Sequence record: NC_000866.4
Reading direction: 5' to 3' (one strand)
Length of the DNA: 64,000 nucleotides
From: Escherichia phage T4
The notes under the pieces are model-generated. The model did no database searches. It was not told where the DNA came from and saw only the letters and a program-made list of their open reading frames with translations. Position numbers and translations under genes: made by a program. This document shows positions 27,763 to 30,740 of the stretch, piece after piece (positions within the stretch are counted from its first letter, which is position 1; each line of letters starts with the position of its first letter).

Positions 27763-28344
27763 CTAACCGAGCTTTTTAGTTAATTCATTCCAATGTTTTC
27801 TACACAAAGAAACATAAATTTCATCACCAATACAAATTTGATTACCTTCTTTAACTGGTGTTCCATCTTCCATTAATCGAGCTGTCATAATCGCTTTTTT
27901 ACCACAATGACAAACTGCTTTTAGTTCAATAAGTTTATCTGCAATCGCTAAAAGTTCTTTAGAACCTTCAAATAATTTTCCAGCGAAATCAGTCCTTAGC
28001 CCATAAGCCATAACAGGAACATTATATGTATCAACAATTCGGCTCAATTGATGCACCTGTTCAGTTTTTAAAAACTGAGCTTCATCTACAAATACGCAAT
28101 GAATATCTTTTTGTGCTTCAGCCCATTTATAGAACTCGAAAATATCCATATCATCTGTAATAATATTCGCTTCCTGCTTAATTCCAATGCGAGAAACGAC
28201 TTCACAGACAGAATCGCGAGTATCAATAGCAGGCTTAAGAACTAATACACTCATTCCACGTTCTTTATAATTATGTGCAGCAATCAAAAGAGAAGCAGAT
28301 TTTCCAGCATTCATTGCTGCATAAGTAAAAATTAAACTCGCCAT
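27763..28344 (-). CDS. tk: thymidine kinase
   Basis: 193 aa; P-loop AAMNAGKSASLL; Zn-binding Cys pairs near C-terminus. Confidence 0.95.
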   Translation of the reverse strand: MASLIFTYAAMNAGKSASLLIAAHNYKERGMSVLVLKPAIDTRDSVCEVVSRIGIKQEANIITDDMDIFEFYKWAEAQKDIHCVFVDEAQFLKTEQVHQLSRIVDTYNVPVMAYGLRTDFAGKLFEGSKELLAIADKLIELKAVCHCGKKAIMTARLMEDGTPVKEGNQICIGDEIYVSLCRKHWNELTKKLG

Positions 28345-28345
28345 C

Positions 28346-28534
28346 TTAGTCCTTAGTTAAATTTTCTAAATATGTTTCTAAATCATTTTCAGCTTTATCG
28401 ATAGATTTTACTAATTCGTAATATGTTTCGGCATCTCCATATTCAGAAGATATTTCAAAAGACAAATCCTTTTCTAAACTAATAATTTCACCAACTAAAA
28501 ATAATATTTCGTTCTTTTGTTCGCGAGTAATCAT
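28346..28534 (-). CDS. hypothetical small acidic protein (tk.1-like)
   Basis: 62 aa ORF. Confidence 0.45.
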   Translation of the reverse strand: MITREQKNEILFLVGEIISLEKDLSFEISSEYGDAETYYELVKSIDKAENDLETYLENLTKD

Positions 28535-28722
28535 AAGGAATTTATATAATCAATGAGTTCTTGTTCTTTATTATCGAATTCTTTAGAAAGTTCTTCGTAC
28601 TCGTTTGCGCTAAAAGGACCGCATTCATTACAAACTTTTTCCAATTCACTATTTTTATCCATAACTTCGTGGATAAGAGAAAAGAGTGTGTCTTTTTGTT
28701 CTTTGCTTAAACTCATAACCAT
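28531..28722 (-). CDS. hypothetical small acidic protein (tk.2-like)
   Basis: 63 aa ORF; similar composition to tk.1, possible tandem paralogs. Confidence 0.45.
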   Translation of the reverse strand: MVMSLSKEQKDTLFSLIHEVMDKNSELEKVCNECGPFSANEYEELSKEFDNKEQELIDYINSL

Positions 28723-28940
28723 GTCACCTTTAAGCAGTATTCTTCTACATGCTGTTTACGACCTTTCTTATCAATAAAGGTATATTCAACGAATGTTCCA
28801 ATGTAGTCTTTATCTACATCATGTGGACTATTAATTGGACATTTAGTGCGACAAATGCGTTCCCATTGACGAATAATTACTGCCTTATTCTTTGGGTCAT
28901 ATGGATGTGGATAATGTATATTCATAATAATGGTTCCCAA
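28713..28940 (-). CDS. hypothetical protein (tk.3-like)
   Basis: 75 aa ORF. Confidence 0.5.
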   Translation of the reverse strand: MGTIIMNIHYPHPYDPKNKAVIIRQWERICRTKCPINSPHDVDKDYIGTFVEYTFIDKKGRKQHVEEYCLKVTWL

Positions 28941-29389
28941 TCAACAATCACAATTTCTAATTTAGAGGAATATGTATCTAAAATCCCCTCAATAATATCC
29001 CAGTTCCCTTTACCTATGCCTGCACCAATCCTAGGCATATAGATTGTAGGTTTAATCAGTTTATTTTCACCAAACTCATTTAATTCTAACATACAATTCA
29101 TTAAAGCGGAATACTCAAAATTTGGCCCTGGTTGAAATTGAGTATAAAGATTGAAGCAGTAAGCTTTATGAGTCCTAAAGTATTTTTCATAGACTGAGTA
29201 AGAACCGAGTTTAGTTACATCACCCCATTCAGTCTGTAATTTATCAGCTTCCAAAATTTTAGGGAAAGCTTTGGTTAATTGACCCGCTACGCCTGAACCC
29301 ATAGTATGAAAACAATTACATCCATGTGCAATATTTTTACCTTCAGCGAAAAGGGCGACAATATCGCCCTTGATATATTTTACAATCAT
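28922..29389 (-). CDS. macro-domain protein (tk.4-like)
   Basis: 155 aa; macro-domain-like motifs NIAHGCNCFHTMGSGVAGQL and PRIGAGIGKGNW. Confidence 0.7.
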   Translation of the reverse strand: MIVKYIKGDIVALFAEGKNIAHGCNCFHTMGSGVAGQLTKAFPKILEADKLQTEWGDVTKLGSYSVYEKYFRTHKAYCFNLYTQFQPGPNFEYSALMNCMLELNEFGENKLIKPTIYMPRIGAGIGKGNWDIIEGILDTYSSKLEIVIVDWEPLL

Positions 29390-29733
29390 CTAGTACTCAA
29401 TCCTCGATTATAAGAATCTACCAAACGGTCAACCATTGAATGACAAGCGGCTTTATCTTTCTCCTCCGCAACTGAACATTCTAAGGTATTCCACTTTTTA
29501 GCATATCGTTTTAACAATGTATCGTTTTTGTATCTGCTTGATTTATCTCTTTCTCCGTCTTTATATGCATATATTAATTTCTGTGCAAATTCAGCTTGGC
29601 ATGCCTTATTTTTCCCACAATAATCTGCCGCAGTGCGGTTTACATATTCTCTAATTTCAGTATATGATGTATCTGCTGACGCAGAAGCAGAAAATGAAAT
29701 TAATCCTATACATAAAACCAAAATTTTAGTCAT
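29386..29733 (-). CDS. vs: Vs, valyl-tRNA synthetase modifier
   Basis: 115 aa with signal-like N-terminus; size and position as T4 vs. Confidence 0.7.
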   Translation of the reverse strand: MTKILVLCIGLISFSASASADTSYTEIREYVNRTAADYCGKNKACQAEFAQKLIYAYKDGERDKSSRYKNDTLLKRYAKKWNTLECSVAEEKDKAACHSMVDRLVDSYNRGLSTR

Positions 29734-30271
29734 TTACTATTTCCAAAAGTTTATTATTTTTAAGGTAATTAGCCTTTTCTAGGACTTCAGAAGCATATTT
29801 AGAACCTGCTTTAACATTCCATCCCGAATTATAAGAGGATATTGCTTTTCTTATATCGCCCTTATGTATATTTAACCAATAAGAAAGTTCAATGTACGCC
29901 CAGGAAGCTGAATTGGATCGTTTATTCAACATTCTTTTTATTTCAGCATCGGTCATATTATAACCAAGTTCCTTAACTCTTGCTCGCATAGTAGGCAAAT
30001 AATTTTGGAACATTCCGTAGGCGTGATGCTTTGGTTTAGATTTTAAATTAACTCCGCCAGAGCTTTCTTGCCATAAAATGGCAGCCATTATATGACCTAA
30101 TCCGCTCTTGTGGATATTTTTGTGTGTTTTATATTTTCCATCCTTAGAAAATTGTTCCCCGAATTGATACGCGTAACGCATGTTATCGAGTTGGACATTA
30201 CTGAAAGTATGCTCGGAGCTATGTGCCATCATTGAAATGGCCAATAGACCAGCGAGTAGTGCTTTTCTCAT
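29726..30271 (-). CDS. secreted lytic-transglycosylase-like protein (vs.1-like)
   Basis: Signal peptide MRKALLAGLLAISMMAHS; SLT-like ES...GxxQ...SSYNSG motifs. Confidence 0.65.
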   Translation of the reverse strand: MRKALLAGLLAISMMAHSSEHTFSNVQLDNMRYAYQFGEQFSKDGKYKTHKNIHKSGLGHIMAAILWQESSGGVNLKSKPKHHAYGMFQNYLPTMRARVKELGYNMTDAEIKRMLNKRSNSASWAYIELSYWLNIHKGDIRKAISSYNSGWNVKAGSKYASEVLEKANYLKNNKLLEIVND

Positions 30272-30278
30272 GCTTACC

Positions 30279-30740
30279 TCATTGAGTTTTAATTACTGCT
30301 TTAGAAGCCTTTCCTGGTAAACGACGACTGTTGATAATTGCCATCCTACATTGAAGTGACGGGTCTTTGAACTTCTCGTTAGGTTTACAAACTGTAAATC
30401 CAAGCCAAAGATTTCCATCTGTGATTTCTAAACGTCCAGGACGATATTCAACCCCATCAATAAAATCCTCGTCAATGTCAGGACGCGGAGGCATACTCAG
30501 GAATTCATTAACTTCTAAAACATGGTCTTTTATTTTATGGAATAATTCAAAAACGTATGTCTCATCAATCTCCCGTTGAATTGCGCGATCAAGAAGATGT
30601 TGAGAATATTTTAGATGAAACGATGAGACTCCTGCTGCTTTTGATGCCTCACGAATCTCATTGTTAATTTGACGAAACTCCGACTCAAAGTGACGACGAA
30701 GCTTATTTCGACGGATAAAAACTTCTGTATTGATAGTCAT
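30279..30740 (-). CDS. regB: RegB site-specific endoribonuclease
   Basis: 153 aa; position and size as T4 regB; early promoter directly upstream. Confidence 0.85.
   Translation of the reverse strand: MTINTEVFIRRNKLRRHFESEFRQINNEIREASKAAGVSSFHLKYSQHLLDRAIQREIDETYVFELFHKIKDHVLEVNEFLSMPPRPDIDEDFIDGVEYRPGRLEITDGNLWLGFTVCKPNEKFKDPSLQCRMAIINSRRLPGKASKAVIKTQ

Follow-up and report, generated by a model that had tools for sequence, protein, structure and literature searches.

Gene tk.4 of Escherichia phage T4 lies on the reverse strand of a 64,000-nucleotide stretch of the T4 genome (NC_000866.4; hereinafter the window, in whose coordinates all positions are given), and its product, Tk.4, is a stand-alone macrodomain of 155 amino acids (aa) belonging to the ALC1/TARG1-like class. 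Our analysis indicates that T4 probably makes this protein to defeat the bacterial DarTG2 system, most likely by hydrolyzing ADP-ribose off the thymidines of phage DNA in a lysine-independent manner, a reading founded on sequence comparison, on published genetics, and on analogy with characterized relatives. The anti-DarTG2 function of tk.4 is already known genetically and the macrodomain is already known as an annotation; what we add is modest, namely the assignment of Tk.4 to a glutamine-type catalytic center, its separation from both DarG and the PhiKZ protein that carries the same name, a test for its absence in phage T5, and a doubt over the 'phosphatase' label attached to its homologs.

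That Tk.4 is a macrodomain is supported by three independent lines of evidence: a Pfam score, the matches of a family profile, and a structural model. An earlier note on this DNA, made from the letters and their translations, had placed the protein in the macro-domain family on the strength of two motifs in a 155-aa product; the open reading frame (ORF) is real, both motifs are present (residues 19-38 and 119-130), and the placement is borne out by sequence, profile, and predicted fold alike. The Pfam Macro profile (PF01661) matches Tk.4 at 27.7 bits (gathering cut-off 22; E-value 2.9e-6) over profile positions 2-113 of 118. A Tk.4 family profile, built from a 34-sequence alignment, recovered among solved macrodomains BT1257 (E 2.6e-17), SCO6735 (1.3e-14), TARG1 (2.4e-14), Poa1p (1.5e-13), and the Mycobacterium tuberculosis (Mtb) DarG (1.2e-12). 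The AlphaFold2 model computed on the family alignment (predicted local distance difference test [pLDDT] 93.1; predicted template modeling score [pTM] 0.89) displays the three-layer α/β/α macro fold, and the assignment thus withstands the fold prediction by which the note had proposed to challenge it. The ADP-ribose-binding loops are likewise preserved, with N25, G33, G122, and G124 invariant and G31 and G8 nearly so across the 34 members. The nearest structural and profile neighbors are TARG1, DarG, SCO6735/BT1257, and Poa1p, rather than macrodomains of the MacroD, PARG, or macroH2A types.

The residues that are invariant in all 34 family members (Q84, G23, C24, N25, C26, G33, A35, D49, N80, Y82, P119, I121, G122, and G124) include a substitution at the catalytic column. 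When the Tk.4 family profile was aligned with that of DarG, TARG1, and PhiKZ gp104 (hhalign; probability 99.2%, E 1e-19), the NLYTQ motif of Tk.4 fell on NFPTK of DarG, such that Gln84 takes the place of the catalytic lysine (DarG K80); among 120 homologs, the pattern NxY[TS]Q is retained in approximately 115 and HGCNC in 110. SCO6735 and BT1257 have a glutamine at this same column. Further, Tk.4 N25 aligns with SCO6735 N27, DarG N22, and PhiKZ gp104 N23, where mutation of the equivalents lowers activity, and the SCO6735 counterparts of G122 and G124 are G126 and G128. These equivalences acquire significance from the biochemistry of SCO6735, which releases ADP-ribose from thymidine in DNA, at a higher rate than DarG or TARG1, but does not act on the guanine-linked form, and whose activity is abolished by Q85A/E, nearly abolished by N27S, and reduced by G128E (PMC9411070, Hloušek-Kasun et al.). 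The mechanism proposed for it is mediated by water and dispenses with a lysine; in it, Asn27 holds Gln85, which in turn positions the distal ribose (PMC9411070). The Tk.4 counterparts of these three SCO6735 residues (Q84, N25, and G124) are all invariant, and from them we infer hydrolysis by Tk.4 itself, its specificity for thymidine, and the role of Gln84.

Phylogenetic grouping points the same way: in a neighbor-joining (NJ) tree, small and with few reference sequences, the Tk.4 family together with BT1257 and SCO6735 separates from three DarG sequences, gp104, and TARG1 in 166 of 200 bootstraps, which is moderate support. Nevertheless, Tk.4 differs from these bacterial proteins in several respects. 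Its identity to SCO6735 (Streptomyces coelicolor, PDB 5E3B) and BT1257 (Bacteroides thetaiotaomicron, PDB 2FG1/2AFC) is only about 29%; its loop 1 reads H-G-C-N-C versus their H-V/I-C-N-D; D49 is an invariant residue specific to the Tk.4 family; and it is a phage counter-defense protein. The 'mobile loop', which in the subclass of SCO6735 and BT1257 exceeds that of DarG and TARG1 by about five residues, is also 5-6 residues longer there than in Tk.4: the stretch from Q84 to the conserved tyrosine measures 9 residues in both Tk.4 and TARG1 and 15 in BT1257, and HMMER and MAFFT both place a 6-residue gap in Tk.4 after Q84. Because of this shortened post-glutamine loop, we describe Tk.4, on sequence grounds, as a short-loop relative of the Gln-type subclass, neither a typical member of it nor a DarG.

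Tk.4 also differs from DarG. The DarG macrodomain (T. aquaticus 5M31/5M3E, M. tuberculosis 5M3I, T. africanus 7OMU) uses a catalytic Lys80 where Tk.4 has Gln84, and DarG possesses a C-terminal DarT-binding domain, whereas Tk.4 is a macrodomain only. The NCBIfam DarG equivalog model (NF048014) gives Tk.4 only 30.3 bits against a cut-off of 250, matching only model positions 2-146 of 338. We therefore rejected the idea that Tk.4 is an orphan DarG, given the lysine-to-glutamine change, the missing C-terminal domain, and this equivalog score; no darT gene adjoins tk.4, whose neighbors are vs and tk.3. Human TARG1/OARD1 (PDB 4J5S) and yeast Poa1p (PDB 6LFQ) have in common with Tk.4 the class, the approximate size, and the short post-catalytic loop. 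However, the TARG1 catalytic dyad K84/D125 corresponds to Q84/G126 in Tk.4 (D125 falling on G126), and the Lys/Asp dyad is thus absent from it. Poa1p, an ADP-ribose-1''-phosphate phosphatase, has a serine at the catalytic column where Tk.4 has glutamine.

That tk.4 is conditionally essential on DarTG2 hosts is shown in a preprint describing HIDEN-SEQ (bioRxiv 10.1101/2025.11.20.689424, November 2025), in which a saturated T4 transposon library was grown on Escherichia coli expressing DarTG2. By that account, tk.4 was the single significant T4 hit on this host, a clean deletion of it sensitized T4 to DarTG2, the gene was non-essential without DarTG2, and it was renamed adfM, for anti-DarT factor macrodomain. 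The reversal of DarT defense that the earlier note had offered as the first of three possible roles accordingly has the support of both the library and the deletion, and the experiment it had suggested, plating a deletion mutant on a DarTG host, has since been published there, with the Δtk.4 phage sensitized. The preprint likens T4 AdfM only to Mtb DarG, and mentions neither the lysine-to-glutamine change nor the kinship with SCO6735 and BT1257.

Several further observations are consistent with this role. T2 and T4 lacking adfA and adfN are still DarTG2-resistant, from which another factor had to exist, and one was indeed predicted (PMC11825919). The DarTG2-resistant T2 (PMC11825919) has tk.4 at 98.9% DNA identity, while T5 is strongly restricted by DarTG2 (PMC11825919). 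Neither a Tk.4-type nor a DarG-type macrodomain was found in T5: tblastn with Tk.4 gave no match at E <= 10, and comparison of all T5 ORFs with the profile hidden Markov models (HMMs) of the Tk.4 family and of DarG/TARG1 reached 9.8 bits at best, whereas tk.4 of the window, used as a positive control, scored 207 bits. The scope of the protection can also be gauged: T4 ΔadfN, which is still tk.4+, is sensitive to the guanine-modifying DarTG1 (PMC11825919; bioRxiv 10.1101/2025.11.20.689424), and CmdTAC, a system that attaches ADP-ribose to mRNA adenines, strongly restricts wild-type T4. Together, these phenotypes imply that Tk.4 does not rescue guanine- or adenine-linked modification, which matches the preference of SCO6735 for thymidine over guanine.

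Drawing these strands together, the following course of events can be proposed. Once infection releases DarT2 from the DarTG2 toxin-antitoxin, the toxin ADP-ribosylates thymidines in single-stranded phage DNA and thereby blocks replication. Most likely, Tk.4 binds the ADP-ribose moiety in the cleft between loop 1 and loop 2 and hydrolyzes the N-glycosidic bond between ribose and thymine, yielding free ADP-ribose and intact DNA on which replication can go on. The chemistry is probably lysine-independent and water-mediated, as proposed for SCO6735, and so would differ from the lysine-dependent route of DarG and TARG1; Gln84, held by Asn25, would position the distal ribose and the transition state. 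A number of points weigh against this proposal. The catalytic lysine of DarG and TARG1 is missing from Tk.4, as is the extended basic 'mobile loop' invoked for the high DNA activity of SCO6735, and the SCO6735 mechanism itself was based on mutagenesis and molecular dynamics, without a substrate-bound structure (PMC9411070). The tk.4 genetics come from one preprint, not yet peer-reviewed, which grades the removal of ADP-ribose from DNA by AdfM only as 'seems likely' and reports no enzymology (bioRxiv 10.1101/2025.11.20.689424). Finally, the T5 absence test is one single case.

We weighed three other accounts of the protein; the remaining two roles raised by the earlier note, degradation of ADP-ribose-derived signals and modulation of the phage's own ADP-ribosyltransferases, fall under the first and the last of them. 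Tk.4 might mainly process a small soluble ADP-ribose derivative, such as ADP-ribose-1''-phosphate (as a Poa1p-like 'phosphatase'), O-acetyl-ADP-ribose, or an ADP-ribose-derived immune signal (e.g., the Thoeris messengers), its DarTG2 phenotype then being secondary; the 'phosphatase' label, the similarity to Poa1p, and the general argument of Iyer et al. speak in its favor. We regard it as unlikely, since it leaves unexplained the sole known phenotype, which is confined to DarTG2, a system with a DNA-modifying toxin, the name 'phosphatase' is a transferred annotation rather than the outcome of an assay, and the catalytic column holds a glutamine as in SCO6735 and BT1257 versus the serine of Poa1p. 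Moreover, T4 RNA repair (Pnk/Rnl1) is not known to generate ADP-ribose-1''-phosphate. The missing canonical lysine, along with the existence of 'reader' macrodomains devoid of catalysis, could instead suggest that DarTG2 is neutralized non-catalytically, either by binding and inhibition of DarT2, as done by the C-terminal domain of DarG, or by Tk.4 serving as a sponge for ADP-ribosylated DNA or free ADP-ribose. This we judge a little less probable still: Tk.4 comprises only the macrodomain, with no counterpart of the DarT-binding domain of DarG (the match ending at position 146 of 338), its invariant residues are those needed for catalysis in SCO6735, and stoichiometric shielding of all modified thymidines seems implausible.

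Least probable, in our estimate, is that Tk.4 erases marks placed by T4's own enzymes Alt, ModA, or ModB, including the RNAylation by ModB. A pairing of writer and eraser would be logical in a phage encoding three ADP-ribosyltransferases, and an arginine-specific macrodomain, MavL, has been described; but Alt, ModA, and ModB modify arginine, while TARG1-like macrodomains have been characterized on acidic-residue, thymine/uracil, and phosphate linkages rather than arginine. Moreover, no resemblance to MavL surfaced in any Tk.4 search, and in the preprint tk.4 is non-essential without DarTG2, with a phenotype of this kind unreported.

The name AdfM has independently been given to gp104 of phage PhiKZ, a stand-alone phage macrodomain that counters DarTG2 (Cell Rep 2026, PMC13309987), in a paper that makes no mention of T4. 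In vitro, PhiKZ gp104 frees an oligonucleotide of the ADP-ribose that DarT2 has attached to it, and the N23A mutation of gp104 lowers activity (PMC13309987). Unlike the Gln-type Tk.4, it is of the Lys-type, with an FPTK motif and a match to Mtb DarG at E 9e-25, and it is imported into the PhiKZ phage nucleus, a structure that T4 does not have. In the NJ tree 197 of 200 bootstraps place gp104 with DarG, and BLASTP aligns only 23 residues of it with Tk.4 (E 0.005); on these two counts we rejected a single family for the two proteins at the subclade level. As the two AdfMs belong to a common class but to different subclades, the simplest reading of their sequences is that phages have acquired macrodomains against DarT2 on at least two independent occasions. 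The collision of the name across two subclades could mislead annotation transfer.

DarTG systems are widespread anti-phage defenses, and knowledge of the phage genes that defeat them helps explain host range. With the T4 question answered genetically (tk.4 = adfM), the remaining value of Tk.4 is mechanistic and taxonomic. Because it lacks the lysine of DarG and TARG1 and groups with Gln-type enzymes, it offers a convenient small model for the lysine-independent hydrolysis of base-linked ADP-ribose. Reversal of thymidine-linked ADP-ribosylation, and of uridine-linked ADP-ribosylation on RNA, has been reported for TARG1 (which acts on both T- and U-linkages), DarG, and SCO6735, and the former has been called the unifying activity of the class. 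More tentatively, and with the balance tilting slightly to the doubtful side, Tk.4 might represent a phage-specific third design of thymidine-ADP-ribose eraser, which combines a Gln-type center with a short-loop TARG1-like scaffold and a signature of HGCNC plus D49. Under this proposal, the Gln-type recruitment (T4-like, in many large lytic phages) and the Lys-type, DarG-derived recruitment (PhiKZ-like) would be independent, and the Tk.4 family would perhaps erase T- and U-linked ADP-ribose in general, on RNA and DNA alike, rather than acting against DarTG2 specifically.

Homologs of Tk.4 are common in phages: of 50,697 phage records, 2845 gave a tblastn match, with at least 80% query coverage in 2463, and the hosts of the matching phages include Escherichia, Klebsiella, Salmonella, Pseudomonas, Vibrio, Acinetobacter, Aeromonas, and Campylobacter. 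In T4 relatives the homolog usually adjoins vs. Two apparently bacterial homologs from metagenome-assembled genomes (MAGs) were rejected as such, as they really lie on T4-like phage contigs, with genes for Rnl1, a helicase, polynucleotide kinase-phosphatase (PNKP), dCMP deaminase, and a spanin nearby; a DarT neighbor was sought beside both and none was found. On one T4-like contig, in a 'Bacilli' MAG (JBOFGC010000414.1, 1-2397), the homolog is two genes downstream of an Rnl1-type RNA ligase gene and a DUF4326 gene, and the PNKP gene follows some 2.5 kb beyond it. This setting corresponds to the RNA-repair neighborhood that Iyer et al. had pointed out for macrodomains of phages. Elsewhere, in Acinetobacter phage vB_AbaM_B09_Aci02-2 (MH800199.1, 86217-86672) and Vibrio phage Noelle (OQ095919.1, 105746-106153), it overlaps or abuts genes annotated as nicotinamide phosphoribosyltransferase and ribose-phosphate pyrophosphokinase. 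A link of the family to phage NAD+ salvage or reconstitution modules is possible. The labels given to Tk.4 across GenBank records of T4 and T4-like phages vary from 'hypothetical protein', 'phosphatase' (PHROG 335), and 'Poa1p_like family protein' to 'macro domain-containing protein' and 'O-acetyl-ADP-ribose deacetylase (regulator of RNase III)'; of these, 'phosphatase' is probably misleading for this phage family.

Table 1. Features of tk.4 and its boundaries, in window coordinates
Feature	Coordinates	Strand	Remarks
tk.4 (adfM) coding sequence	28922..29389	-	155 aa, stand-alone macrodomain; ATG at 29389, TGA at 28924-28922
Loop 1 (phosphate-binding), codons H22-G36 (HGCNCFHTMGSGVAG)	29282..29326	-	N25 lies between C24 and C26, all invariant; GxG motif
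N80-L-Y-T-Q84 codons	29138..29152	-	Gln84 at the column of the catalytic Lys (DarG K80, TARG1 K84)
Loop 2 (substrate/diphosphate-binding), codons P119-W130 (PRIGAGIGKGNW)	29000..29035	-	P119, I121, G122, and G124 invariant
vs stop / tk.4 start, ATGA overlap	29386..29389	-	Direct sequence reading
tk.4 stop / annotated tk.3 start, ATGA overlap	28922..28925	-	Sequence reading; tk.3 start per OL964735
GAGGA Shine-Dalgarno-like element	29401..29405	-	11 nt upstream of the tk.4 ATG, within the 3' end of vs

The locus itself was identified by megablast, in which window positions 28000-30500 are 100% identical to bacteriophage T4 (X04567, HM137666, and others), making the ORF gene tk.4, formerly named ORF 60.5. 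Its upstream neighbor is vs and its downstream neighbor tk.3; the genes tk, vs.1, and regB are close by (Table 1). On account of the ATGA overlaps at both ends of tk.4, the genes vs, tk.4, and tk.3 look like one tightly packed transcription unit, and translational coupling at the vs/tk.4 overlap is possible; the X04567 record annotates a ribosome-binding site in the stretch around the GAGGA element. Promoter-like sites around tk.4 were not enriched (15 found versus 16.1 expected from shuffles), and we accordingly claim no promoter. Within codons 7-13 of tk.4 (29351-29371) is a perfect 8-bp G+C-rich hairpin (AAGGGCGAUAUUGUCGCCCUU, mRNA strand), which a scan flagged as resembling a terminator on the opposite strand; we rejected it as such given a non-significant fold z-score of -1.55 for the surrounding 81 nt, and it may be due to chance.

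The adjacent genes presented some features of their own. The product of tk.3 (28713-28925, reverse strand), of 70-75 aa, matches DUF7202 (E 2e-38), and its ORF can be extended to an upstream TTG at 28940; as the annotated tk.3 ATG overlaps the tk.4 stop, the two genes are probably co-expressed. Gene vs (29386-29733, reverse strand) encodes the 115-aa 'valyl-tRNA synthetase modifier', which is conditionally important in minimal medium according to the preprint (bioRxiv 10.1101/2025.11.20.689424). Its N-terminus, MTKILVLCIGLISFSASASA followed by DTS, resembles a Sec signal peptide and has an AxA site for cleavage, which is odd given that the synthetase this protein is said to modify is cytoplasmic. 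Gene vs.1 (29726-30271, reverse strand) has the orientation of vs and tk.4 and lies immediately upstream of them; its 181-aa product carries a signal-like sequence at the N-terminus (MRKALLAGLLAISMMAHS) and contains an SLT lytic transglycosylase domain (Pfam, 25.1 bits versus a cut-off of 21.3).
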